Below, one piece after another: positions 238 through 48,524 of a DNA stretch of 64,000 nucleotides. The stretch lies in the NCBI GenBank assembly GCA_016784165.1, contig JADHVD010000003.1:6867-70866 (forward strand), given 5' to 3'. The DNA is from Candidatus Woesearchaeota archaeon (GTDB lineage Archaea; Nanobdellota; Nanobdellia; Woesearchaeales; BS150m-G63). The stretch's first letter is position 1. Each line of letters opens with the position of its first letter. A program made the position numbers and the translations under genes. The notes beneath the pieces were generated by a model. It worked only from the letters and a program-made list of their open reading frames with translations. It made no database searches and was not told the DNA's origin.

Positions 238-3200
238 TTAAGGATTACCATAACTCTGAGCCAAAGTTCCTTTCAGTTTAAGATTCCCGCTATTATCAAA
301 GAAAGCTATTAAAGAATCAGAAGCATTAACAAACTTCAAAGCAGTTCCAGAAACACTCATAACAGCATTCTCAGTTAACTCCCCAACCAAATACAAATTC
401 CCAGTATTTGAAACATAAGCAATATTTGTTCCAGCATTATCTTGTAAAATAAAAGAATTAGCCCCAGGATTCAAACTACCTTGATTATCTGACAACACTC
501 CGCGGATAAACATATTTCCAGTATCATCAATACTTCCAACAATATTATCAGAACTATTAGTGATAGCAAACTTATTACTTGTAGGGATCAACAAACTCAT
601 TGTAACATATAAAATACTATTACTAGTAATATTAACTCCCTGCGAATCAACATCATACCCGCTCTTAGTGGTATTCATAGTATAATTAGTAAGATAATTC
701 TTAACACCAACAACCCAATCACAACTAGAACAATTTTCATAATATTCACTAATGTTTTGTTTTACTATCCATCCATCTCCACCACTTAAAACAGAAAATC
801 CCAAATCACCATTAACATTCCAAGCACTCACGTTAGCCCCACCAACATCCCCATTGCTATCATTCACATAGACATCTAGGTACCAGTTTACATAAAGCAC
901 ACCACTACCAGAATAATAAAACAAAGTAGCACTTTCATTAAAAGAAACATTTACAAAAGTGTTTGCACCAGCTGAAGTCCCCTCAATCCAAACATCAGCA
1001 TAATCACCCCAAAATAAAGAATTATCATCAAAAGTAGAATCTATAAATCTATTTCCAGATGAATTTAAGAAATAAACCCCTGCGTCTTGATTATCAGTAA
1101 CCAAAACATCATAAAAACTGTTGTTGTAAGAATCATCAAAGCTTACTCCTGAATAATTGTTATACTTTATCTCAACATCTGTAACATTATTGTTATTAGA
1201 TCCATCACTAAATTCAATCCCATCTAAATAAGAATTGTGTATTGTAAGATTATAAAGAGTGTTATTCTCACAAGCACTTGCTAATATAACTCCTGCTCCA
1301 AGTTGAGTCAAATTAAACAATTGATTATCAATCCTATTCCCTATAGATGAAGAATGAAGATATACAAAATTATCAGTAGGATTTCTTATAATATTTTCAG
1401 TTATATTATTATTACTAGAAGCATCTAACATTATACCATAATTATTACAGTTATCACAACCACCAGTTCCAATAAGCTCATTAGAACTTATTACACTATC
1501 ATCACAATTATCTAACTGAATCGCAGCAAAAATATCTCCACTCTGAGTGTCATTAATATAATTATCCTCAACAATATGTCCAGATCCCTCAACATAGATT
1601 CCACTTCCAGAAATATCATAGATGATATTATTAGTCACATTATTTCCAATTCCTCCAGATACAGAAATACCAACACTCCCAACTTCCCCATCCCCAATAT
1701 CTCTCACAGTGTTAGAATCTATGAGAATATTGTCAGCAGTATCAGAACCAATTCCTGCAACAGTGTAATTACTATCAACTAAATGAATTGAATTATTGAA
1801 AACATAACCATCATCAGAACCATCATCATAATATATTCCATAAGTAAAGTCAGTAATCTCACAGTTCTTAACAGTGACATTAGTAACATTATCTATATTT
1901 ATTGCAGTAAAAGTATCAACATAATTTGTATTATATTCTCCATCTATATGGTATCCTGCACAATCAAACACAACATCAGAAGCATTGATATTAAAACAAA
2001 GTTCAGTATCATTGTAATAATTTATACTTGCATTCATCTCATGAGTTCCACTCACAGTAATATTACTACAACTATCATAAGTATGGCTTGGATCATAAGC
2101 AAAATCAGTTACAGTCATCTCTTGATTACTGAATTCAAAAATTAAAGTAGCATAACCAGCAATATTCATATGGTTTACAAATCTTCCAATCTCACTACAG
2201 CTGTAATCCTCAATCAAAAACCCAACAGGTTTTATTGAATCATCACTACCAATTGAGCTATAATCATAAACATACCCATCACCACTAATAATTTTCAACA
2301 CATCAAGTAAAGAATCATCCCCACATTTTAGATCTACAAACCTCATCTCATCAACACTTCCACCATTATCAATCATAATCTCTTCCCAATAAGAGTTGTT
2401 ACTACTAATACTCAAATTAGCAGTTCCAGTGGTGTTAAACATCACAGTCCAAGTATCTCCATCACGTAGATATTCGATAGGATTCAACACATTAATTTCA
2501 ATCTCATAAGTTTGGTTAGATAGATGAGGCACTATCCATTCAACATAATCTACCAATCCATCATCAGTAGTATCATAACCATCAAAGTTTACGCTCTCAC
2601 GTTTTCCATCAACAATCCAATACAGATTAACACTCTCAACAGCACTTTCAGGAATAAAAGTATAAGCCAAAATATCTTCATAATGTATTTCAGAGCTCAC
2701 AACTATCCTCTTTAGCCCATTACCTAATTCTTCTTCAACAGCAGTGGGGCCGGGTAATTCATATTCTATTTCAATCTCATCAACAACTTCTTCAACAATA
2801 AGCTCTGTTTCATTCCCAATATCCTCTGCAACAACATAACCAGTAAATCTAAATAAGGATTTTAGCCAATTAAATAACTCAAACAACAACCCATCACCAA
2901 CTTCAGTAACCGCTCCACCAGTTATCAAATTGTGCTCACTCAATTCTTCAACTTCTTCACCCTTTTTAACAACAACTTTGTCAGAGATATCTTTCTCAAT
3001 CCTTCCAGTTATTTTCTTAACCTCAATATTGCTCGCATTTTTAGGCAATTCAACAATAAGATTTTTCTTAGGCGCAGTAAGTTTAACTTTTTTAATAAAT
3101 TTAACAGGACGATTAATCATAACTCTACCAATCATTTTTTCTTCTACACTAACATTAACAGTCACATTTTCAGTAATATTAACAATAACATTCTCAGTAA

Positions 3201-3834
3201 TATTAACAATAACATTCTCAGTAATATTAACACTAACATTAACAGTCACATTCTCAAGACTTATGTTTTCTATAGTTACTCCTTCTATGACTTCCTCAAC
3301 CACAGAAGCATTTTCTTCAACAACACCCACATTCTCAATAACTTTCAGAGTTTCATTAATACTGATATTTTCAGTAATATTAGTACTCACATTAATAGTC
3401 ACATTCTCCACACTTACAGCCATACTCACATTTTCAGTAATATTTTCAATACTCAAATTATCTAAACTAATATTGATTTCACCCACATTAATAGAAACAT
3501 CTTCAATAGAAACATTCTCCAAACTTATATTTTCAACACTTTCACTTTCAGTAATAGTAGTTACTACTTCTTCAGCCAAAGAGACATTTTCTTCAACATC
3601 AATTACACTAACAGAAACATTATCAATAATCTCTCCAACACTAGCATTGCCCAAACTTAAATTATCTAAACTAACATTTTCTAAAATTAGATTATCTAAA
3701 CTATTATTTCCAGCAACTAATCCAGTTATCAAAGGTTGAGTGAATGTAAGAACTAATGCTAATAGGATAATAATTCCTGCCCCCATTAATTCACCATACC
3801 CTTTCTTGTTCCAAACTCTTTTTTCCAAACTCAT
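238..3834 (-). CDS. Giant (1198 aa) membrane-anchored or secreted surface protein with right-handed parallel beta-helix repeats
   Basis: There is an N-terminal hydrophobic anchor (GAGIIILLALVLTFTQPLITGLVAG). A long array of ENVS/NIS/NIT short repeats follows. Beta-helix-like repeats are present (NCEITDFTYGIYY, ILIDSNTVRDIG, NNIIYDISGSGIYVEG). C-terminal repeats include GNMFIRGVL, GNLYLVGEL and GNLKLKGTL. N-x-S/T sequon density is very high. Confidence 0.85.
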   Translation of the reverse strand: MSLEKRVWNKKGYGELMGAGIIILLALVLTFTQPLITGLVAGNNSLDNLILENVSLDNLSLGNASVGEIIDNVSVSVIDVEENVSLAEEVVTTITESESVENISLENVSIEDVSINVGEINISLDNLSIENITENVSMAVSVENVTINVSTNITENISINETLKVIENVGVVEENASVVEEVIEGVTIENISLENVTVNVSVNITENVIVNITENVIVNITENVTVNVSVEEKMIGRVMINRPVKFIKKVKLTAPKKNLIVELPKNASNIEVKKITGRIEKDISDKVVVKKGEEVEELSEHNLITGGAVTEVGDGLLFELFNWLKSLFRFTGYVVAEDIGNETELIVEEVVDEIEIEYELPGPTAVEEELGNGLKRIVVSSEIHYEDILAYTFIPESAVESVNLYWIVDGKRESVNFDGYDTTDDGLVDYVEWIVPHLSNQTYEIEINVLNPIEYLRDGDTWTVMFNTTGTANLSISSNNSYWEEIMIDNGGSVDEMRFVDLKCGDDSLLDVLKIISGDGYVYDYSSIGSDDSIKPVGFLIEDYSCSEIGRFVNHMNIAGYATLIFEFSNQEMTVTDFAYDPSHTYDSCSNITVSGTHEMNASINYYNDTELCFNINASDVVFDCAGYHIDGEYNTNYVDTFTAINIDNVTNVTVKNCEITDFTYGIYYDDGSDDGYVFNNSIHLVDSNYTVAGIGSDTADNILIDSNTVRDIGDGEVGSVGISVSGGIGNNVTNNIIYDISGSGIYVEGSGHIVEDNYINDTQSGDIFAAIQLDNCDDSVISSNELIGTGGCDNCNNYGIMLDASSNNNITENIIRNPTDNFVYLHSSSIGNRIDNQLFNLTQLGAGVILASACENNTLYNLTIHNSYLDGIEFSDGSNNNNVTDVEIKYNNYSGVSFDDSYNNSFYDVLVTDNQDAGVYFLNSSGNRFIDSTFDDNSLFWGDYADVWIEGTSAGANTFVNVSFNESATLFYYSGSGVLYVNWYLDVYVNDSNGDVGGANVSAWNVNGDLGFSVLSGGDGWIVKQNISEYYENCSSCDWVVGVKNYLTNYTMNTTKSGYDVDSQGVNITSNSILYVTMSLLIPTSNKFAITNSSDNIVGSIDDTGNMFIRGVLSDNQGSLNPGANSFILQDNAGTNIAYVSNTGNLYLVGELTENAVMSVSGTALKFVNASDSLIAFFDNSGNLKLKGTLAQSYGNP

Positions 3835-6800
3835 TTCTTAACATTCCTCAAAGTTTCATAAAGTAAAACAGCAATCATTTCTTTATCTTTTTCATTCCTC
3901 AAAGTTTCAGCAAGCTCGCTTTCCCTAAAGACATAATGAATCCATTCAGCAATATCATTTTTACTCCAGTTCACATACCCAGTGAATTCTTCTTTACACA
4001 TATTCATTAGTTCAAACACCATTGCTTCAATATTTCTAATTTCTCTGCCGTCTTTCAGTACAAAACCACTACCTTCTGGAGCATCTTTCAGCAGTAAACT
4101 CAACTCTCTTTCAATTTTCTTTTTTTCTGGAATAGCAACAACAACTCTTGATAACCCATGGGATAGCAGCATACTTACAACAATAATCATTAAAACAACA
4201 AAATAGCTGAACAGCGCAACACCTTTTTTCTCTCCACCAATTTGATTGAACATATACGCTTTACCTGTTAAATCTTCCTTCTTAGATTCATCCGAAGATG
4301 ATTCTTCTCCATCACCTTCTACATTAATTTTTTCTTCCTCACTCACTTCTTCTTCTTCTATAATTTCAACCAAACCAACAGCAGGAACTTTCTGCACCAT
4401 TTCTAAAATTACAACATCTTCCACGATACTTTCTAATTTTAAATTAAATTCATTAACCCTATCCCTATTCACATCAAATCCAACACTTTCACCTAATCTA
4501 ATTGTTGCAGTTTTATCATCCACCAAAACATTAACAGAATTTTCATTAACACCATTTAATTCAATTTCAATAACCTCAGCCGAAAAAGCATCAACCATAT
4601 CTTTAATAGCATCCAAAATCAAAACCCCTTCTCTTACATACAGCACACCATCTTCCATCACCCATTTATTTAATTCTATTAATCTCATAACCATTAAGTT
4701 CAATTCAATAGTATCTCCAACCTCAAGAGATTGCTCAACACGACCAATAGTATCACCCGATCCTCCATTAAGTAATCTATCCAGCGCTTCTTCCATTACA
4801 ATTTTAAACAATTCTCCCATATCAACTCCACTATACTCAAAACCAAGATAACCCATTTCGATTTCATAAATTACAGGTTCTCTGATACTAATCCCCTCAT
4901 CAGTTGTTGTTGTTGGGGTACTCTCAGTTTCTTCTTCGGTTTCAGCAACATAATCACCAACACTATAATTAGTAAACCCAGTAACACTAAAGAAATAATC
5001 ATCCTCAACATTACTAATATTTCCACAGAATCCGCCACAATCAGCACTATTCCTATAAGGTACAGCACTTCCACTAATCGAAACATTATAAAAGCTCAAA
5101 TTAGCAGATTTATTAAGCCCACTGAACATACTTGAATTTACAAAGATGTTGTTTTCTGTAATATCCAACCCACTTCCAAAGTAGAGAGTTCCATTTTCAG
5201 TAATATCTAAATCTGGACTTCCCCACATAATCTCCCCATAACTATTGTTGTATATCAAAAAATTATCATCACTAGGAAAATCATCTATAATTTTGTTATC
5301 TGAAGCAGTCAGATTATTATTAATAAATAAATTATTTTCTGATTCCCCTTGGATGTGAAGTGTAACCCTATTGGCTGTTGCAATATTATCTTTTACATTA
5401 TTATTTGTAGCAGATGCTAAATGAATTGCATACTTATTTGCTGTAAAAGTATTATTTATAACCGTGTTATTGTGTGAATCAGAATATAAAGAGAGAGCAT
5501 ATTCTCCAGATTCTGCCGTGTTATTTATAATAGTGTTATTTAATCCAGAATATATATGGATACCCAAAAGAAATTTAACATAAACAGCATTATTTTCAAT
5601 CAACCCATTAGATGAATTATAATAATAAACCCCATTAGCACTTCCAACCCCGCTTAAATTAATATCACAGTTCTTCACAGTAACATTATCTTGACCATTA
5701 ACATAAACCCCATAACTACCATTTCCTTGTATCGTTCTGCCACCACAATCAAACACAACATCATCCTCAGTTATATTTAGGATATAATTATTTTCACAGC
5801 CAATAATATCATAACTCAGATTTGTTGATTCATTTATTGTTTGACCACATCCCCCTTCTAAAGTAAATTCAAGTCCAGTATTATCTGTCAAATTAACACT
5901 GCTCACCCCAGTGATATAATTCTGTTTTGATGCATTTATCGTATAATTGGTCCAATAGCTCTTTCCAGCTGAGTTTTGGACATATTCAGTAATATTCTGT
6001 CTTGCTGTCCACCCAGAGCTGTTAGTCAGCACACTAAACACCTGACTGCCGTTAGTCTGCCACCCAGTTATATTCACCCCACTAAGATCACTCCCTTCGC
6101 TATTATTCACATAAACATCTAAGTACCATTGTATATGAAGATTTCCCCCCCCAAGTCCAAAGCTAACATCACTTTGGTTAAAACTCATATTCCTAAAATA
6201 AACATTATTAGTACTATATTCTGAACTTATAGAAATATCATCACCATTTGGAGCAATTATTTCAGAATCAATAAAATAATTCACATCGTTTCCTGTACTA
6301 TATACACTAATACCTGTATGATTTGTTGAGTTAATATACTCATTTCTAAAAGTATTATTCCCACTATTACTCATTTGAATCCCAAAACCCCCACTTGTTG
6401 TTATTGTGTTGTTCAGGAGAGTGTTTGAATCAGAATTAACTAGAAGTATCCCGTGCCCAGCTGTTTCACTTGTGTTTATTATATTGTTTGTTACATTTGA
6501 ATCAGAAGATGAAGAAAAGTATATTCCACGCCCATATGCTCCACTAATAGTTATATTATTATTTTCTATTGTTCCATCATCAGCACCCACAAAGTAAATC
6601 CCATGTTTACTATTAGTTGTTACATTCCCTTCTAAAATATTACAGTTTTTAATAGTTACATTATCATAACCGCCAGAATTATTTATTCCATAACCTAACA
6701 CTCCTGCAGTAGAATAATTAATAGTATACCCTGCACAGTCTAATATTATATCATCTGCTCCAATAGTTATTACAGTTCCATCACAAGTTAAATCTTCTTC

Positions 6801-7979
6801 TAATGTTGTTGATTCTGTTATTTCTTGATTACATGGATTTTGACCAACACTATAAGTGGTAAACCCAGTAACACTAAAGAAATAATCATCCCCAACATTA
6901 CTAATATTTCCACAGAATCCGCCACAATCAGCACTATTCCTATAAGGTACAGCACTTCCACTAATCGAAACATTATAAAAGCTCAAATTAGCAGATTTAT
7001 TTAACCCAGAATTACTAACAGAATCAACTTCAATTAAATTAGCACTAATCTGAACATCAGCACTTAGGTTTGTTCCGGTTCCATTGATTGGTTCTGTAAA
7101 TCTTATTTCTCCTTCATCTGTGTCTTTGAAATAAATTATTCCTCCACTTCCAGCAATAGAATAATTAGTAATAACTTGATCAATTAGATAAGTACCATTA
7201 ATACCTGCATCAACTATGTTTAAATCATAATCTGCTATATTACTGAATGTGTTATTAGTAAAACTATTATTTTCTGGATAATTTGACCCCGATGAATCTA
7301 ATCTTACCCCATCTCTACCTGATTGAGCAATATTATTATTTTGGAATAAGTTGTTATCTGAATCCTTATATATCCATACTGCATCTGCATCTATTTGTGT
7401 TGTATTTATTATGTTTTCTGAAATGTTTGAGTTTGAGCTTGAAGTAAGCTGGATCCCAAATCCATAAATTCCAGAAGTTGTGATTGTGTTTTCTGAAATA
7501 TTTGAACTTGATGAAGTTAAATATATCCCAGAACCTTTGACTCCATTGTTCGTGATTGTATTATTTTGTATTGTTCCATCATCAGCACCCTCAAAGTAAA
7601 TCCCATGTTTATAATTAGTTGTTGAATTCCCTTCTACAATATTACAATTCTTAATAGTTACATTATCATAACCACCAGAATTATTTATTCCATAACCTAA
7701 CACTCCTGCAGTGGAATAGTTGATTGTATATCCTGCACAGTCTAATACAACATTTGAAGCATTAATGATAATTCCAGTACCATTACAACTCATATCTCCA
7801 CTAAGTATAGAATCCTCATTAACATAACTACCACAATCAGAGCTGTCATTAAACACAACATAACCAGTGATATTATCTCCAAATCCGATTGAATAAAACA
7901 CACCAATAATTGAAACAGCAAGCAGAGTAAACACTAATAATTTCAAGTTCTCTTTCCAGCTCATCTGTTCATCTATCAT
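3831..7979 (-). CDS. Giant (1382 aa) surface protein with duplicated parallel beta-helix modules, a Thr-rich linker, a C-terminal TM helix and a roughly 105-aa cytoplasmic tail
   Basis: The N-terminal anchor is LKLLVFTLLAVSIIGVFYSIGF. The block CAGYTINYSTAGVLGYGINNSGGYDNVTIKNCNI occurs twice, as does LNKSANLSFYNVSISGSAVPYRNSADCGGFCGNISNV. The linker is ETEEETESTPTTTTDEG and the TM helix is ALFSYFVVLMIIVVSMLLSHGL. The ORF overlaps the downstream ORF by 4 nt. Confidence 0.85.
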   Translation of the reverse strand: MIDEQMSWKENLKLLVFTLLAVSIIGVFYSIGFGDNITGYVVFNDSSDCGSYVNEDSILSGDMSCNGTGIIINASNVVLDCAGYTINYSTAGVLGYGINNSGGYDNVTIKNCNIVEGNSTTNYKHGIYFEGADDGTIQNNTITNNGVKGSGIYLTSSSSNISENTITTSGIYGFGIQLTSSSNSNISENIINTTQIDADAVWIYKDSDNNLFQNNNIAQSGRDGVRLDSSGSNYPENNSFTNNTFSNIADYDLNIVDAGINGTYLIDQVITNYSIAGSGGIIYFKDTDEGEIRFTEPINGTGTNLSADVQISANLIEVDSVSNSGLNKSANLSFYNVSISGSAVPYRNSADCGGFCGNISNVGDDYFFSVTGFTTYSVGQNPCNQEITESTTLEEDLTCDGTVITIGADDIILDCAGYTINYSTAGVLGYGINNSGGYDNVTIKNCNILEGNVTTNSKHGIYFVGADDGTIENNNITISGAYGRGIYFSSSSDSNVTNNIINTSETAGHGILLVNSDSNTLLNNTITTSGGFGIQMSNSGNNTFRNEYINSTNHTGISVYSTGNDVNYFIDSEIIAPNGDDISISSEYSTNNVYFRNMSFNQSDVSFGLGGGNLHIQWYLDVYVNNSEGSDLSGVNITGWQTNGSQVFSVLTNSSGWTARQNITEYVQNSAGKSYWTNYTINASKQNYITGVSSVNLTDNTGLEFTLEGGCGQTINESTNLSYDIIGCENNYILNITEDDVVFDCGGRTIQGNGSYGVYVNGQDNVTVKNCDINLSGVGSANGVYYYNSSNGLIENNAVYVKFLLGIHIYSGLNNTIINNTAESGEYALSLYSDSHNNTVINNTFTANKYAIHLASATNNNVKDNIATANRVTLHIQGESENNLFINNNLTASDNKIIDDFPSDDNFLIYNNSYGEIMWGSPDLDITENGTLYFGSGLDITENNIFVNSSMFSGLNKSANLSFYNVSISGSAVPYRNSADCGGFCGNISNVEDDYFFSVTGFTNYSVGDYVAETEEETESTPTTTTDEGISIREPVIYEIEMGYLGFEYSGVDMGELFKIVMEEALDRLLNGGSGDTIGRVEQSLEVGDTIELNLMVMRLIELNKWVMEDGVLYVREGVLILDAIKDMVDAFSAEVIEIELNGVNENSVNVLVDDKTATIRLGESVGFDVNRDRVNEFNLKLESIVEDVVILEMVQKVPAVGLVEIIEEEEVSEEEKINVEGDGEESSSDESKKEDLTGKAYMFNQIGGEKKGVALFSYFVVLMIIVVSMLLSHGLSRVVVAIPEKKKIERELSLLLKDAPEGSGFVLKDGREIRNIEAMVFELMNMCKEEFTGYVNWSKNDIAEWIHYVFRESELAETLRNEKDKEMIAVLLYETLRNVKK

Positions 7980-22947: not shown

Positions 22948-23598
22948 ATGTTTTGGTCTAAAAAAAAATATGCAACAAAAGAAGATATTACGTCACTCCA
23001 TTCTACTTTAGCAGATTCTTTTAATAATGTAAAAACACACACATCTAACATCTTTGAATGGATCAATTATTTTCATCTTAAACACCAAGAACAAGAAAAA
23101 ATAATGGCAAATCAACAAAGACTTCTTCAACACATTCACGAAAAATTATCAACATCACCTCTTTCAAAACATGAAATAAGAGAAATTCTCGATGATCATT
23201 ACGCATTCAAAGAACTCCTTAATAGAATACAACAATTTGACCAACAAATTAACACAATCATGGATTCACACCAACCTATGCACGACAAAATTCATGAATT
23301 ACACTCAAGAATAGATCAAATAGAAAATCCACCAAAACCATCTTTTAAAGAAAAGTTAATTCAAAAAATAACTAGAAACTCTAAAGGTTATGTAAAAAAT
23401 TTAGTATTTTCTTTAATTCAAAAATATGAAAATATTTCATCTTTAAAATTAAGGGAAATAGTTGTAGATGAACAAGGATTATGTTCCAAAAGTTCTTTTT
23501 ACCGTATTCTTACAGAGATAGAGGAGTCAGATCATATAGATATTGTCAGGCAAGGGAACGAAAAATTATACCTTAGTAAATTAATTAAACGAATTTAG
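22948..23598 (+). CDS. Coiled-coil protein with a C-terminal winged-helix DNA-binding domain (paralog 1)
   Basis: It has a heptad-rich N-terminal two-thirds. The C-terminal LKLREIVVDEQGLCSKSSFYRILTEIEESDHIDIVRQGNEKLYLSKL looks like a wHTH. A TATA-like AAATTTATATAT lies about 25 bp upstream. Confidence 0.55.
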   Translation: MFWSKKKYATKEDITSLHSTLADSFNNVKTHTSNIFEWINYFHLKHQEQEKIMANQQRLLQHIHEKLSTSPLSKHEIREILDDHYAFKELLNRIQQFDQQINTIMDSHQPMHDKIHELHSRIDQIENPPKPSFKEKLIQKITRNSKGYVKNLVFSLIQKYENISSLKLREIVVDEQGLCSKSSFYRILTEIEESDHIDIVRQGNEKLYLSKLIKRI

Positions 23599-23644: not shown

Positions 23645-24208
23645 ATGGTAAACAATAATTCAAAAAATCAAGTTTCTCGTCGAGAAAAAGAACAATTAAA
23701 TAAAAAACTGAAATCTACTTTTAATAAAATTAAGAATGAATTTGAAGAACATCTCGACGCTATAAATGAAAACACAAACGAAATTCATTCTAATTATGAA
23801 TATCTTTGTGAATTAGATTCCAAAATAGATAAACTAAATGAAAAATTAGATGAAGTAATGATGTTTATTCAACACTTAGGAAAAAAACCATTAAAATTCA
23901 AAAAACCAACATTCAAAATAACACCTTTAACGAGAAAAGAACAAGAAATATTCTTAACTTTCTATACCCTAGAACAAGAGCAAGAATCCGTCACTTATTC
24001 AAAAATTGCTAAATATTTATGCTTACCTAATTTATTAGTTCAAAATTATATCACAAACCTTATTGAAAAAGGAATCCCAATCTATAAAAAATATTTAGAT
24101 AAAGAAGTTTATTTGAGACTTAGTCCACAATTTAGGGAACTTCAAGCAAAAAAGAATATTGTAAAAATTAATGAATCTGTTTCTAAGAAAATAGTATCTC
24201 AAAAATAG
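23645..24208 (+). CDS. Coiled-coil protein with a C-terminal winged-helix DNA-binding domain (paralog 2)
   Basis: It has the same architecture as paralog 1. STFNKIKNEFEEHLDAINENTNEI here compares with DSFNNVKTHTSNIFEWINYF there. The C-terminal segment is LTRKEQEIFLTFYTLEQEQESVTYSKIAKYLCLPNLLVQNYITNLIEKGIPI. Confidence 0.55.
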   Translation: MVNNNSKNQVSRREKEQLNKKLKSTFNKIKNEFEEHLDAINENTNEIHSNYEYLCELDSKIDKLNEKLDEVMMFIQHLGKKPLKFKKPTFKITPLTRKEQEIFLTFYTLEQEQESVTYSKIAKYLCLPNLLVQNYITNLIEKGIPIYKKYLDKEVYLRLSPQFRELQAKKNIVKINESVSKKIVSQK

Positions 24209-24340
24209 ATATTCAAATATCCAATACAAAATAAATATATCAAAAAGATTATTTAATAATATATAGTTTAAAGAATATAATAACCATAAAAAACTATTAA
24301 TAATTACTCGCTTAAAACTTTTAAGCAAAACTTAAAGGTT

Positions 24341-25150
24341 TTAGAGTTCATCTAAAGGGCTTTTTACCTTCTTCAATTCTTCTTTAGATACTCTTGTATA
24401 GATCTGAGTTGTTTGTAGATTGGAGTGCCCTAGTAATTCCTGTATTTTCCTAATATCTACTCCAGCCTCAAGCAGATGCGTTGCAAAACAATGTCTTAAA
24501 GTATGAGGGCTAACATTTTTAGTGATTCCAGCTCGTTTACTAGCATTCTTTACTATATCTTGTACATTCCTTGCACTAATCGCCCCATTCGGCCCTGAAA
24601 ACACATATTCCGACTCAGAAACCCTGCTTCCAAGGTATTTTTTCAATTCTTTAATCAAATTTTCAGAAAGAATAACAATTCTATCTTTTTTACCTTTACC
24701 GCCACGAACCCAAGCAATTTTTTCATCAAATTCAAGATCCCCCTTTTTTAACCCAATACATTCACTTAATCGTAAACCAGAAGAATATAACATTTTGATA
24801 ATCAATTTACTTTTTTCAGTTCCTGCAGAATTTATCAATCTTCGCACTTCTTCTTTAGAAAGCACAATTGGTAGCTTTTTATCAATTTTAGGGGTTTTGA
24901 AATTAACAACCCCTTTTTTTAGCACTTCATCATAAAAAAACTTTAACGCAGCTTTTACTAAACTAACAGAAGAAGCAGAATAATTTTCATCAGTTAAAAG
25001 ATGGCCAATATATTTTTTTATATCATCTTCCAAAACATCATCCGGCGTTTTTTGGATATATTTAAGAAACAGCCTATTATAATACAAATAAGCCTTCAAA
25101 GTCTGCTTACTAAACCCCCTTAATTTCAATTCCGTAATTAATTTTTCCAT
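24341..25150 (-). CDS. xerA: Tyrosine recombinase of the XerA/XerC/XerD type
   Basis: The catalytic region HTLRHCFATHLLEAGVDIRKIQELLGHSNLQTTQIYTRV and SGLRLSECIGL (Arg box) are present. The N-terminal SAM-like core-binding domain is LRGFSKQTLKAY. Confidence 0.85.
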   Translation of the reverse strand: MEKLITELKLRGFSKQTLKAYLYYNRLFLKYIQKTPDDVLEDDIKKYIGHLLTDENYSASSVSLVKAALKFFYDEVLKKGVVNFKTPKIDKKLPIVLSKEEVRRLINSAGTEKSKLIIKMLYSSGLRLSECIGLKKGDLEFDEKIAWVRGGKGKKDRIVILSENLIKELKKYLGSRVSESEYVFSGPNGAISARNVQDIVKNASKRAGITKNVSPHTLRHCFATHLLEAGVDIRKIQELLGHSNLQTTQIYTRVSKEELKKVKSPLDEL

Positions 25151-25163
25151 TTTGTGCTTAAAA

Positions 25164-25193
25164 ATACGCGTATAATGTACCTTATACGCGTAT
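25164..25193. other. dif-like recombination site or operator: ATACGCGTATAA-TGTACC-TTATACGCGTAT
   Basis: It has perfect 12-bp inverted arms around a 6-bp spacer, 14 bp upstream of the xerA start codon. The inner ATAA-TGTA..-TTAT matches the E. coli dif core as I remember it. Confidence 0.55.
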
Positions 25194-25210
25194 CTATATA
25201 AATCTTCCCA

Positions 25211-25258: not shown

Positions 25259-25686
25259 ACCCTTAAAACCTTATTTTTGTGCTGAAACCTTCTTACTTTA
25301 CCTTATTTACACAAAAACCCCAGCATTTTAGCAAAAAATAGCAGATTCAAAATATCTCAAAAACCAATAAAAATAGAAACACCAAAAAATCTTAATTTTC
25401 CAAAAAAATAAAAACTAATTTTCAGCAAAAAATAATTTCTACAAATCAAAAAAAACAAAAATCTTTTCACCTAATTATTTTCAATATTGTAATTAACTAA
25501 ACTAAAACATTTAAGAAAAGCTTAAAACATTTAAGCTCAATTTAATCAACTAAAACTTTTAAGCAAATCCTAAAAGTTATAATCACTACAAAAAACACAT
25601 CAAATTATATCTATTAGAAAACATATTTTAAAAAATAACCATTCTAACCTATAAATAATAAAATATATACTAAAGAATATATTAAT

Positions 25687-27637: not shown

Positions 27638-28879
27638 TCACCCCTCAATAATTCCATAACCAATCAATCTAAACCTAGATCCAACCATCCTGGAAATAGT
27701 TACCCTATCACCAATATCAGCACATATAGGTAACTTTAATTTAGATTTGAATCCACCCTTACTTAATTCACTAACAACACCTGCAGTTACAGATGAATTT
27801 ACATTGAACATTATAATTTCATTAATTTTTATTGGTTCAACATCCAACTCTTCTTTAGTTCCAACAACTCTTTTTAATAAATTTGATTTAAGTTTTAATT
27901 CATTCCAAACAATAGGCAATTTTCCAAATAATCCTACAATATTTCCACTAAGATTATCTGATTTAACAAGCGAAGGATCTAATGAAGTTGCTATAGCTAT
28001 AGAACCACCAGGTCCAGCTTCATTTATTTGGTGAGTTCCACTCATTAATCCAGTTACTTTAGTTTTTATAGGTATCCAAATTTTTTGATTATGCTCTTCT
28101 TTGCTTCTACCAGGCAATATAGTGATATCATCTCCTTTTTTCAATATCCCTTCCCTCAAAGCACCTCCAAGAACTCCTCCAACTAACTTTTTTGGACCAG
28201 AACCTGGTTTATTAATATCAAAAGATCTTACAACAAACATAATGGGGGGCTTCTTTTTATCCCTCTTAGGGGTGGGGATTTTTTCCTCTATAGATTTTAT
28301 TAAGTACCCAATATTAATTGCAAATTGGGCAGAAATAGGAATTATTGGAGCATCTTTGTAAGGAGTATCTTTAATTAATTCTTTTATCTCTTTATAATTT
28401 TTTAATACATCTTCTTTGGACACTAAATCAATTTTATTTTGGACAATTATCACATTTTTAATCCCCATAATCTCTAAAGCCATCAGATGTTCTCTTGTTT
28501 GTGGTTGAGGGCATTTTTCATTTGCAGAAATTAGCAATAAAGCACCATCCATCACATTTGCCCCACTCAGCATAGTAGCCATTAAACTTTCGTGTCCAGG
28601 AGCATCAACAAAAGAAACACCCCTCAACTCTTTAGTTTTTGATTTGCAGTGCTCACAAGTTTCTTTTACTGTATAAGCTTTAGCACCTTTACATTTACCA
28701 CATTTTCTAAATATTGTATTTGCATACCCCAACCTTATGGTGATTCCTTTTTTCAGTTCTTCAGAATGGGTGTCTGTCCATTTACCACTAAGCCTCTCTG
28801 TCAAGGTAGTTTTACCATGATCTACATGTCCAACCAACCCAATATTTACTTCTGGTTGTTTATAGGTATCCTTTTTCAC
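27638..28879 (-). CDS. eif2g: Translation initiation factor aIF2 gamma subunit
   Basis: G1 is GLVGHVDHGKTTL and G3 is DAPGHE. NKID is present, as is the zinc knuckle CGKCKGAKAYTVKETCEHC. Synteny after S6e fits. Confidence 0.9.
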   Translation of the reverse strand: MKKDTYKQPEVNIGLVGHVDHGKTTLTERLSGKWTDTHSEELKKGITIRLGYANTIFRKCGKCKGAKAYTVKETCEHCKSKTKELRGVSFVDAPGHESLMATMLSGANVMDGALLLISANEKCPQPQTREHLMALEIMGIKNVIIVQNKIDLVSKEDVLKNYKEIKELIKDTPYKDAPIIPISAQFAINIGYLIKSIEEKIPTPKRDKKKPPIMFVVRSFDINKPGSGPKKLVGGVLGGALREGILKKGDDITILPGRSKEEHNQKIWIPIKTKVTGLMSGTHQINEAGPGGSIAIATSLDPSLVKSDNLSGNIVGLFGKLPIVWNELKLKSNLLKRVVGTKEELDVEPIKINEIIMFNVNSSVTAGVVSELSKGGFKSKLKLPICADIGDRVTISRMVGSRFRLIGYGIIEG

Positions 28880-29556
28880 GATTTGTCACCATCACCTTTT
28901 TTAGATTCTTCTTCGCTTTCTTTTTTTGAAAGTGTTGAAGAATCTTTTTTAGATTCTTCTTCGCTTTCTTTTTCTGAAGATACTGAAGAATCTTTTTTAG
29001 ATTCTTCTTCGCTTTCTTTTTCTGAAGATACTGAAGAATCTTTTTTAGATTCTTCTTCGGATTTTTCTTCAGGTTTATTTTCAGACTTTTCTTTTTCAAC
29101 TGGTTCGTCTTTTTCTTTCTTAGAATCCTTTCCTACTTTCTCTTCAGCTTTTTCTTTAGAGTCTTCTCCTTCTTTAGGTGTTTCAGCTGTTACACCTAAT
29201 TTAACTTTACCATATTTTATAATTTTAAGATTAATTTGACTTATATTTCTACCAATTGTATGGCCTCTTACATTCTTCCTTTGTCTTTGTCCTTTTCTTT
29301 TTATTTTAGCACCTACTCCAGAAATAACTAATATTCTTTTTCTTTCAGTACCATTAACATCTTTCCTCATTGGAAATCCACAGCTATCACTACCACCAGT
29401 AATTTCAAACTCATAACCATTCAATCCAAAAGAGTCACCCTTAATTTTTTCTCCTAACTTTTTACCTAAGAAGACTTCTGCTTCAGCATCTTTTGCTTCA
29501 CGCTGATAACATTTGCCGGTCTTAGGGTCAGCTAAAACTAATTTATAATCTGTCAT
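28876..29556 (-). CDS. rps6e: Ribosomal protein S6e with a roughly 95-aa Ser/Lys/Glu-rich repetitive tail
   Basis: The core is MTDYKLVLADPKTGKCYQ...GGSDSCGFPMRKDV...RKNVRGHTIG. I chose the start at 29554-29556 because a GGAGG lies 8 nt upstream; the track ORF starts 15 nt earlier. Confidence 0.85.
   Translation of the reverse strand: MTDYKLVLADPKTGKCYQREAKDAEAEVFLGKKLGEKIKGDSFGLNGYEFEITGGSDSCGFPMRKDVNGTERKRILVISGVGAKIKRKGQRQRKNVRGHTIGRNISQINLKIIKYGKVKLGVTAETPKEGEDSKEKAEEKVGKDSKKEKDEPVEKEKSENKPEEKSEEESKKDSSVSSEKESEEESKKDSSVSSEKESEEESKKDSSTLSKKESEEESKKGDGDKS
28897..29059. repeat. Roughly 3.4 tandem copies of a 48-bp unit inside rps6e (encoding KDSSVSSEKESEEESK)
   Basis: Read directly: units at 28897-28944, 28945-28992 and 28993-29040, and a partial unit at 29041-29059. 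Confidence 0.9.
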
Positions 29557-29586
29557 TTTTACGGCCTCCAACTCGTTGGGGGATGC

Positions 29587-47255: not shown

Positions 47256-48524
47256 TTATGAATTATAAATTCTTAATTGATTTCTTCCATTTGTTTTTGC
47301 TTTATATAGTGCTTCATCTGCTCTTTTTATGAAAATATCTGTTAGAAGATTCATTTTTAAGTCTTCATCATTTAATATATCTGTTAAATTTTTATTTATT
47401 TCTTTAGAATAAATTTCTGCTTGGTCTTTTATTGATTCTAATCCATATAAAATTTGCCCATTTTTTAATCCTGTAAATTTGGAATAAATTTCTAATAAAG
47501 GAATTATTTTTAATTTATTTTTAACATATTTATTTATTAATACTTGTCCTGATTTTCCTTTTAAAATTCTTATTTCTGGAACTTCAAAACTTGAAACAAC
47601 ACCTATGCTAGTGTTTATATTAACTTTTTCTTCTTTACCCGTATGTATATTTTTAAAATAAAAATTTGTTTTTGATAAGTTTATCCTATATTGATCTAAT
47701 TTATTAATTATTCCTTTATAAAATTTTGATGAATTGTCAAAGTTTGCAAAAGAAATAAGAAATTCTTCCCCTCCAAATCTACCATGCAAGTCCCGACTTC
47801 TAAAACTATTTTTACTTAATTCTGTTGTTTTTCTTAATACTTCATCTCCATTCAAGTGTCCATAATTGTCATTTATTCTTTTGAAGTGATCCAAATCATA
47901 CATTGTAAGAACTATTTCAGGAGTATTAGTTGCACGAAAATTTAATAAAGTTTCTAATTCATTTTTCAGTTTTTCTTTGAATGTTTTCTTCCTAAATAAT
48001 CCTGTTAATTCATCTATTCCTAAAAAATTATCATGATATTGGATTAATTTTCCAAAAGCAGGAATTATTTCTTCAATTTTTATTTTATCCACTTCAGTAA
48101 ATCCATTTTTTTTATTTAATAATTGTATCGCCCCAATTATATCTCCATTTGCTTTTATCGGGATTGTTAACATATTTTTTGTTTTATAACCAGTTTGGCT
48201 ATCAAATAATCCTAAATGATAGGGGTTTTTTTTAACTTCATTGCACAAATCAGTTTTTCCTTCTGTTATTACTTTTCCAACTATTCCTTGATTAATAGAT
48301 AATCTTTTTCCAACTAAACCCTCTTCCCCACCAATAACATCCTTAAAAATTAATTCATTACCTTCTTTTATAAATAAAGAAGCAGCATCTGCACCAGTCA
48401 TATCTTTACATTTTAAATTCATATATTTAATCAAATTCCTAATATCTGTATCAAGATAATCAAATAATTCCATTAATGTGGTTTTGGTATGATTTTCTAA
48501 ATTTAATTTATCCTCTATATTCAT
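47256..48524 (-). CDS. GAF-domain plus GGDEF-domain protein (predicted diguanylate cyclase) with a large insertion in the GGDEF domain
   Basis: The motifs are DELTGLFRKKTF, MYDLDHFKRINDNYGHLNGDEVL, the I-site RSRD, the active site RFGGEEF (47760-47774), TSIGVV and RADEALYKAKTNGRNQ. A TATA-like CTTTAAATAG lies about 26 nt upstream of the ATG. Confidence 0.85.
   Translation of the reverse strand: MNIEDKLNLENHTKTTLMELFDYLDTDIRNLIKYMNLKCKDMTGADAASLFIKEGNELIFKDVIGGEEGLVGKRLSINQGIVGKVITEGKTDLCNEVKKNPYHLGLFDSQTGYKTKNMLTIPIKANGDIIGAIQLLNKKNGFTEVDKIKIEEIIPAFGKLIQYHDNFLGIDELTGLFRKKTFKEKLKNELETLLNFRATNTPEIVLTMYDLDHFKRINDNYGHLNGDEVLRKTTELSKNSFRSRDLHGRFGGEEFLISFANFDNSSKFYKGIINKLDQYRINLSKTNFYFKNIHTGKEEKVNINTSIGVVSSFEVPEIRILKGKSGQVLINKYVKNKLKIIPLLEIYSKFTGLKNGQILYGLESIKDQAEIYSKEINKNLTDILNDEDLKMNLLTDIFIKRADEALYKAKTNGRNQLRIYNS

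Follow-up and report, generated by a model that had tools for sequence, protein, structure and literature searches.

A stretch of 64,000 nucleotides from the genome of a Candidatus Woesearchaeota archaeon (contig JADHVD010000003.1; "the window" refers throughout to this whole stretch) contains xerA, a gene for a tyrosine recombinase of 269 amino acids (24341–25150, minus strand), and, directly upstream of it, a palindrome with the characteristics of dif, the recombination site of Xer enzymes. The palindrome occupies positions 25164–25193 and reads ATACGCGTATAA TGTACC TTATACGCGTAT; its 12-bp inverted arms match at every pair and flank a spacer of 6 bp. The arm proximal to xerA (25164–25175; TTATACGCGTAT in the sense of the gene, −25 to −14 from the ATG) is the predicted site of one XerA monomer, and the distal arm (25182–25193), its perfect complement, is that of the second. 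Between them lies the 6-bp central, or strand-exchange, region (25176–25181), which is TGTACC on the plus strand and GGTACA in the xerA sense. The gap between palindrome and gene measures 13 bp (25151–25163) and not the 14 bp first reported for it, with the start codon appearing as CAT at 25148–25150. In relatives that are 92% identical the twelfth arm pair is non-complementary and the arms are 11 bp long; because this pair is strain-specific, the conserved and presumably functional unit is the classical 28-bp site of 11-6-11 geometry at 25165–25192 (TACGCGTATAA TGTACC TTATACGCGTA on the plus strand), itself a perfect inverted repeat.

The protein encoded next to this element is a bona fide XerA orthologue. 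It carries the Pfam domains Phage_integrase (9.6e-46) and Phage_int_SAM_4 (2.4e-17), and its top matches in the PDB are the XerA proteins of Pyrococcus abyssi (4a8e; 3.2e-57, phmmer) and Thermoplasma acidophilum (5hxy; 1.7e-48); the matches that cleared the E-value cut-off comprise XerA, IntI4, XerD, a mycobacteriophage integrase (Gp33) and XerH, with none named XerS. Residues R127, K152, H216, R219, H242 and Y251 align with R135, K160, H226, R229, H252 and Y261 of P. abyssi XerA, of which R135, K160, H226 and Y261 have been named as catalytic (PMC3646895), such that the R-K-H-R-H-Y active site is complete in this alignment. Identity is 59–92% among the 120 homologues listed, which come from metagenome-assembled genomes (MAGs) named Candidatus Woesearchaeota, Nanoarchaeota and Aenigmatarchaeota, and the cluster at 92% identity bears the NCBI name 'Candidatus Woesearchaeota archaeon'; MBL7050751.1 and MBC8444416.1 are relatives under the name Candidatus Woesearchaeota. 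With more than 60% identity across Woesearchaeota and Nanoarchaeota MAGs, the family is housekeeping-like in its sequence conservation. A phmmer search of XerA against all open reading frames (ORFs) of the window returned XerA alone, with no other tyrosine recombinase; the initial annotation's "single Xer gene" thus holds at the scale of these 64 kb.

The surroundings are those of an ordinary chromosome. The gene order is aIF2-gamma, a small ORF, PAC2, a spacer of ~450 bp, xerA, two convergent hypothetical genes, a methyltransferase gene and the gene for RNA polymerase subunit L (RpoL), and this order is kept in relatives at 68–92% identity. Elsewhere the window encodes ordinary chromosomal functions, including pyruvate phosphate dikinase (PPDK), DnaK, ribosomal protein S6e, a deoxynucleoside kinase and a hydrogenase, and its tRNA genes are found at 53 kb only. 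The conserved housekeeping order and the lack of a nearby tRNA gene argue for a chromosomal locus and not a mobile element. An Rfam search of 23–28 kb at a permissive threshold gave no match; with this result and the position of the tRNA genes, both an RNA gene and a tRNA-linked integrase were rejected as accounts of the locus.

The palindrome and its resemblance to characterized dif sites

The palindrome stands out from its sequence background in several ways. It was claimed at the outset to be a perfect 12-6-12 inverted repeat, and this proved correct; moreover, there is no other perfect 11-6-11 or 12-6-12 inverted repeat within the window. Shuffling the window 300 times with dinucleotides preserved gave a mean of 0.01 perfect 12-6-12 repeats per window, and 3 of the 300 shuffles contained one. 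No further copy of the site was found in the window at three or fewer mismatches, and the arm 12-mer has no match beyond itself other than offset self-matches that arise because ATACGCGTAT, the short palindrome noted from the start in each arm, is indeed self-complementary. The core pattern TATAA-N6-TTATA is at chance frequency, in that the window has 16 matches against 15.7 expected, with the dif-like site the sole exact one. In DNA with 30.6% G+C and a depletion of CG dinucleotides (536 observed versus 1439 expected), the window has only two ACGCGT hexamers, and both lie within the palindrome. As single-stranded DNA, the site has a folding energy of −10.6 kcal/mol (z = −5.25).

Comparison with characterized archaeal sites is informative. 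The central 16 nucleotides, TATAATGTACCTTATA, which include the whole spacer, are identical at 16 of 16 positions to the dif of Thermococcus kodakarensis, a site that has been deleted as the 28-mer TTTTGATATAATGTACCTTATATGACAA and that chromatin immunoprecipitation sequencing (ChIP-seq) identified as a bona fide XerA binding site (PMC11840125). The two systems share more than this. The T. kodakarensis site, TTTTGATATAA TGTACC TTATATGACAA, likewise has 11-6-11 geometry, the spacer TGTACC and inner arms TATAA/TTATA, is served by one XerA recombinase (TK0777) and lies in an unusually large AT-rich intergenic region (PMC11840125). Overall identity is 19 of 28 positions, the difference residing in the outer arm bases, which are ACGCG in the window but TTTGA/TGACA in T. 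kodakarensis. In addition, dif lies far from xerA in the Thermococcales, whereas the site described here is within the xerA promoter; the T. kodakarensis ChIP-seq paper mentions no XerA binding at the xerA promoter (PMC11840125).

The P. abyssi dif on which binding and recombination were assayed in vitro, ATTGGATATAA TCGGCC TTATATCTAAA, is also alike in its orthologous recombinase, its TATAA/TTATA inner arms, its 6-bp spacer and its nearly perfect arm symmetry (PMC2958812; structure 4a8e). It differs in having the spacer TCGGCC, in being unlinked to xerA and in that its activity was demonstrated in vitro, whereas the window site is known from sequence. The most conserved feature of archaeal dif has been given as TAA(N)6-8TTA in a 2025 paper (PMC11840125), and the window site carries this signature as TAA-N6-TTA.

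The resemblance extends to bacteria. Escherichia coli dif, printed as GGTGCGCATAATGTATATTATGTTAAATC (PMC3325230), agrees with the form given in the initial annotation and, when divided as GGTGCGCATAA TGTATA TTATGTTAAAT, displays the same 11-6-11 geometry and the same ATAA-TGTA..-TTAT center, with 12 of 14 central positions identical. In contrast to the archaeal systems, that site is acted on by two different recombinases, XerC and XerD, has asymmetric arms, is FtsK-dependent and sits at the terminus without linkage to xerC or xerD. In its geometry, its signature, its cognate recombinase and its conservation in non-coding DNA, the window's combination of site and gene corresponds at the sequence level to an XerA/dif system.

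Equivalent sites, half-sites and spacer orientation in relatives

To place the site in a comparative setting, relatives were gathered as 46 loci from a metagenome scan with the XerA protein and 14 from exact-protein look-ups; a profile search of genome contigs with the XerA alignment yielded mostly bacterial integron-type or Xer recombinases among the matches listed, along with at least five archaeal loci. An equivalent site lies upstream of xerA in 12 distinct relatives whose XerA proteins are 46–99% identical. It is embedded in the promoter in 10 of the 12, lies at −73 in L003 and lies 662 bp upstream in L254. The relatives that have it just upstream of the gene are the closest ones, with an XerA identity of ~62% or more, and a single one at 46%. 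The gap to xerA is 15–36 bp in most relatives with a full site, compared with the 13 bp of the window.

Written in the sense of xerA, the sites are TACGCGTATAA GGTACA TTATACGCGTA in the window, L081 and L256–259; AGTTCCTATAA GGTACA TTATAGGAACT in L082; TTGTCGTATAA TGTACC TTATACGACAT in L083; ATGTCGTTTAA TGTATC TTATACGACAT in L084/L129; ATGTCGTATAA GATACA TTATACGACGT in L127/128; ATGTCGTATAA GGTACA TTATACGACAT in L130; TTGTCGTATAA TGTATC TTATACGACAT in L131; TGTTCGTTTAA TGTATC TTATACGAACA in L252; AGTTCGTATAA GGACTA TTATACGTAAT in L253; GGTTCGTATAA GATACA TTATACGTACT in L096; TGGTATCATAA TATTAT TTATGATACCA in L003; and AGTTCGCATAA GACACA TTATGCGAACT in L254, at its position 662 bp upstream. Treating the two arms as a "helix" over the 12 distinct sites, with 500 shuffles and with the partner arm slid by 1–3 columns as a control, we found that 92.4% of the arm cells are complementary, compared with 28–53% in the slid controls. 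Eight of the 12 arm pairs are altered on both sides, and the observed values were reached in none of the 500 shuffles. The inner TAA/TTA is invariant across the sites, and the outer four to six positions vary in step on both arms. This pattern of symmetric change is what is expected of a site read twice by one protein and, together with the central match to the validated T. kodakarensis dif, it bears out the proposal that the palindrome is a dif-type Xer site, as far as sequence comparison can do so.

The spacers offer a second comparison. GGTACA and GATACA each also occur among the relatives as their exact reverse complements, TGTACC and TGTATC, and the flanking genes are the same for either orientation, with no intermediate forms seen among the relatives' sites. 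The simplest account of these flips would be at least one inversion of the loop as a unit between the perfect arms; an alternative is two coordinated substitutions by way of a symmetric intermediate. Small inversions of hairpin loops, and the correction of quasi-palindromes by template switching, are established mutational mechanisms. The flips tentatively suggest that the perfection of the arms may be partly maintained by hairpin-templated inversion or correction. If loop inversion is indeed the cause, the polarity of dif with respect to the chromosome is unconstrained in this lineage, which fits a homodimeric, FtsK-independent system. Antiparallel Xer recombination was also considered as a source of the arm symmetry and the spacer flips, and was rejected in that it would join sister chromosomes head to head.

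More distant orthologues present a different picture. In 24 of 39 orthologue loci (~55–66% identity), xerA is preceded on the sense strand by a single arm of the form TTAT[AG]CGAA(CT), usually TTATACGAACT, which is 25–30 nucleotides before the ATG in 22 of the 24; these loci span L086–L119, L254 and L255. Elsewhere the half-site is rare, with only seven occurrences in 171 kb on both strands. It has the same position and orientation as the proximal arm in the window, its sequence is that of the arm of L252, L253 and L254, and its TTATA falls where the TATA box of xerA would be. In many cases AGTNCG, left over from the outer distal arm, and AAATCTA come before it. Because the inner TATAA is missing, these half-sites are not recombination sites; each looks like a conserved XerA operator devoid of recombination geometry. 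Full or near-full sites are found 0.1–1.8 kb upstream of xerA in L088, L116, L254, L001, L106, L107, L002 and L115.

Taken together, the family has three layouts. The promoter may hold a full dif, it may hold a half-site while dif presumably lies at another place, or a dif may be loosely linked upstream. Constant across these layouts is the presence of an XerA arm where xerA has its promoter. We take this as the main argument for autoregulation, which it suggests may be family-wide, and it is also the main argument for a site that serves as an operator and nothing else, a possibility that we weigh below.

Promoter geometry and probable autoregulation

The position of the site relative to the expression signals of xerA is potentially significant. 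A TATA box, TTTATATA (25195–25202, minus strand; −52 to −45 from the ATG), sits 2 nucleotides from the 11-bp distal arm and is adjoined by a purine-rich sequence, GGGAAGA (25203–25209, minus strand), that resembles a transcription factor B recognition element. This box is of the same TTTAWATA class as that of eight other genes in the window, in which the motif begins 30–31 nucleotides before the ATG and leaves a box-to-ATG spacing of 22–23 nucleotides, the pattern of leaderless archaeal mRNAs. If the same spacing holds for xerA, its transcription is predicted to begin at about −21/−22 from the ATG (about 25171–25172), inside the proximal arm (25170–25173, minus strand), and dif would then span about −22 to +8 relative to that start. 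The initial annotation's promoter overlap, with the TATA-like ATTTATATAG immediately upstream, is therefore substantiated by the match to the TATA boxes of other window genes and by the start predicted within the arm. The arrangement recurs: in most relatives with a promoter site, ATTTATATA lies 2–3 bp 5′ of the distal arm, and a variant of the box, TTTAAATA, is present in L096 (6 bp from the arm) and L253.

In the window and in L081, ~25 nucleotides have been deleted from the leader (25151–25163 as compared with L256–L259), including the GAGG Shine-Dalgarno motif of the 92% relatives, and this deletion shifts the proximal arm to −25, which is where distant relatives have their half-sites. In this setting the TTATA of the proximal arm could also serve as a TATA box for a leaderless transcript.

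A protein bound between the TATA box and the transcription start is the classical mode of archaeal repression, in which recruitment of RNA polymerase is blocked. Because the site fills the interval from the TATA box to near the ATG, over the predicted transcription start, XerA bound at dif would be expected to act in this way, blocking polymerase recruitment and repressing xerA. A further consequence, after Le Bourgeois 2007, would be that an element integrating at dif cuts xerA off from its promoter. On balance we lean toward the view that XerA represses its own gene through the promoter-embedded dif.

Interpretation, alternatives and chromosomal setting

These observations make it probable that 25165–25192 is the chromosomal dif of this Candidatus Woesearchaeota, a member of the DPANN archaea, and that it is embedded in the core promoter of xerA. 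On this reading, two XerA monomers would bind the two identical 11-bp arms and cleave at the edges of the central region TGTACC/GGTACA, and a chromosome dimer would be resolved to monomers by strand exchange between its two copies of dif, in the manner of the XerA/dif systems of Pyrococcus, Thermococcus, Thermoplasma and Sulfolobus, which operate independently of FtsK. For the window site itself, we infer binding, cleavage, sole use in dimer resolution, the position of the transcription start and autorepression from these comparisons.

It is also worth considering a broader proposal, which we advance tentatively and as something a little short of probable. The XerA of Woesearchaeales may have two jobs, as dimer resolvase and as autorepressor, with the arm TTATACGAACT fused to the xerA TATA box family-wide and a complete dif captured between TATA box and start in the subclade of the window. 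The 28-bp element would then be at once recombination site, operator and trap for elements that integrate at dif, and the polarity of dif would be unconstrained.

Several points weigh against assigning the site to dimer resolution. The uniqueness of the site applies to the 64-kb window only. In the relatives with half-sites, XerA may occupy the promoter, so that binding there need not imply recombination, and L254 combines such a half-site with a perfect full site 662 bp upstream. As cited in PMC11840125, Jo et al. (2017) found that T. acidophilum dif1 binds XerA and does not recombine. Furthermore, the location shows no sign of being a replication terminus. Raw GC skew is strongly negative over 1–36 kb and tracks gene orientation; after correction for orientation, the coding-strand effect is about +0.15, the plus-strand offset is negative in every fifth of the window (−0.33 to −0.11), and its sign, constant over 1–64 kb, does not change at 25.2 kb. 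If skew marks replication, then, dif is not within ~25 kb of the point where forks converge, and the idea that the site could be tied to the terminus by GC skew found no backing. A late-replicating or skew-inversion region is the typical location of dif in bacteria and Thermococcales, though not in Sulfolobus, and there is precedent for other positions. The dif of Sulfolobus solfataricus, mapped experimentally between SSO1161 and SSO1162, is not within the fork fusion zones and is separated by 0.375 Mb from the mid-point of its own zone (PMC3020120), and in Thermococcales dif is 122–142 degrees from oriC. By analogy, an off-terminus position seems to be tolerated in archaea, and the lack of a skew switch does not exclude a dif. 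We note separately that after the same correction an excess of C over G on the plus strand, a strong asymmetry, runs across positions 1–64000 and declines steadily from left to right, such that the window may belong to one replichore with the switch beyond its right end.

Of the competing explanations, the one that survives best is that the palindrome is an operator only, at which XerA represses xerA while dimers are resolved at a site elsewhere in the genome. The half-sites of the 24 distant orthologues, the arrangement in L254, the lack of a skew switch and the T. acidophilum dif1/dif2 pair all speak for it, the last providing, in the form in which it is cited, a model of a dif-like site that binds XerA and does not recombine, both for this explanation and for the half-sites. 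We nonetheless consider it unlikely. The site has the full dif geometry and the exact spacer of a validated dif, and relatives share the spacer sequence, which would be dispensable in an operator. If the chromosome carried another site capable of recombination, deletions or inversions would result, and no second copy is present in the 64 kb.

Alternatively, the palindrome could be the operator of some other dimeric transcription factor, for example either of the coiled-coil/helix-turn-helix neighbors of xerA, with its resemblance to dif a coincidence. Symmetric covariation of the arms would suit any homodimeric DNA-binding protein, two genes of helix-turn-helix type are syntenic with xerA, and the site overlaps a promoter. 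However, an unrelated operator would not be expected to agree at all 16 central positions, asymmetric 6-bp spacer included, with an XerA site validated by ChIP. The motif also tracks xerA where the neighbors differ (L253, L254, L255) and the half-site is almost exclusive to xerA promoters, which makes this explanation quite improbable.

The neighbors in question are proteins of 216 and 187 amino acids encoded at 22948–23598 and 23645–24208 (both on the plus strand, convergent with xerA), each with a coiled-coil N-terminus and a weak C-terminal helix-turn-helix, no Pfam family and no detectable similarity to the other. Genes that match them in size, strand and order follow xerA in L127–L131, L252 and L257–259, and the two proteins could partner XerA or take part in chromosome segregation.

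A third possibility is that xerA and the palindrome form a mobile-element integration module, either an integrase with its attachment site or an element that hijacks Xer. An integrase gene beside its site is a typical layout of mobile elements (discussed in PMC1914069), and in one relative a MazEF module has been inserted in the same spacer. But the housekeeping flanks keep their order in the relatives at 68–92% identity, no tRNA gene is nearby, the site has neither a second copy in the window nor a flanking direct repeat, and the closest structural-database relatives of the protein are XerA proteins; the locus thus differs from an integrase/att module in each of these respects, and we regard this possibility as highly improbable. 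Viruses that hijack Xer were considered as well and rejected: the arm motif CGTATAA-N6-TTATACG occurs in at least 120 viral contigs, but at chance level, with essentially random spacers and with arms that do not extend further. One such match, at 820–839 of the low-GC IMG/VR contig L222, reads CGTATAA TGTATC TTATACG and has the spacer of some Woesearchaeota dif sites; it adjoins a tandem array of ATTACCAAATTAGTAAT units, has no recombinase or xerA gene nearby and is probably due to chance.

Finally, a chance or purely structural palindrome lacking a protein partner, such as a terminator hairpin, deserves virtually no credence: short inverted repeats are common in AT-rich genomes, but only 0.01 perfect 12-6-12 repeats are expected per window, conservation with compensatory changes across relatives effectively refutes chance, and the site has no T-tract and lies ~490 bp downstream of the preceding gene. 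A scan for intrinsic terminators likewise found none at the site (the accompanying sigma-70 scan is irrelevant for an archaeon).

The remaining features of the window can be described briefly. The spacer between PAC2 and xerA contains three copies of a palindromic motif of ~15 nucleotides, roughly GMTTAAAWGTTTTAAKC (25503–25563), that also follows the xerA stop codon (24311–24343); the window has 8 matches against 2.4 expected, with counterparts at the same places in relatives, and the motif may be a bidirectional terminator or insulator, or else the site of an accessory protein flanking the dif-xerA unit. The same spacer holds the inserted PemK/MazE toxin-antitoxin pair, or MazEF module, of L131 (1448–2034) and a called ORF of 112 amino acids in L129, and the large spacer adjoining dif would appear to tolerate insertions. 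Farther away, ribosomal protein S6e (28876–29571, minus strand) has a C-terminal extension of ~100 amino acids composed of acidic/Ser/Lys repeats (SEEESKKDSSVSSEKE three times) that is mirrored in DNA repeats at 28903–29055. A protein of 422 amino acids (47256–48524, minus strand) combines GAF and GGDEF (diguanylate cyclase) domains (GGDEF E = 1.5e-26) and may have been acquired by horizontal transfer; to our knowledge, domains of cyclic di-GMP signaling are unusual in archaea. Two adjacent giant proteins of 1198 and 1382 amino acids (238–7979, minus strand) with right-handed beta-helix/NosD repeats probably belong to a type of surface protein that is common among DPANN archaea.

It is informative to examine the locus in light of other systems in which a recombination site lies beside its recombinase gene. 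In the difSL-xerS system of streptococci and lactococci, a single recombinase is likewise encoded directly downstream of its site, and both autoregulation through the promoter-embedded site and protection against insertions at dif have been proposed (PMC1914069). The two are nonetheless distinct, in that XerS belongs to a different, longer family and difSL is an atypical, asymmetric, FtsK-dependent site of 31 bp (PMC1914069), whereas the window has a XerA of 269 amino acids with a canonical symmetric 28-mer and archaea lack FtsK (PMC8371274); the window system is thus not of the difSL-xerS family. Closer to home, dif was predicted close to xerA in Sulfolobales (Cortez 2010), a 2017 review speaks of archaeal 'xerA/dif modules', and dif-like sequences upstream of the xerA operon have been reported in Haloferax and Halobacterium (PMC11840125). 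These haloarchaeal and Sulfolobales cases share the inverted repeat TAA-N6-8-TTA upstream of xerA but are sequence predictions that include neither a promoter-level placement nor comparative covariation. The suggestion that a recombinase-adjacent dif would be new to the studied archaea was therefore overstated. As for the dual role first proposed, dif and operator in one, the dif-type site and its overlap with the promoter stand; the terminus location found no support in the skew. The new angle is modest and consists of the promoter-level architecture and the family-wide half-site.

In the literature searched, we found no publication on XerA or dif in DPANN archaea. The XerA/dif system has been studied in a handful of cultivated archaea, and the maintenance of chromosomes in DPANN archaea, with their tiny genomes and host-dependent lifestyle, is poorly understood. 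The locus supplies a 28-bp substrate (TACGCGTATAA-TGTACC-TTATACGCGTA) and a 269-amino-acid enzyme, both of which can be synthesized and assayed without culture, and the dif site could serve as a marker by which MAG assemblies are anchored and may be a hotspot for insertions. The idea that an Xer recombinase might regulate itself through its recombination site was put forward as speculation for XerS in 2007; the series of full promoter site, half-site fused to the TATA box and full site some hundreds of base pairs upstream in these archaea is, as far as we found, the first sequence-level support for it.

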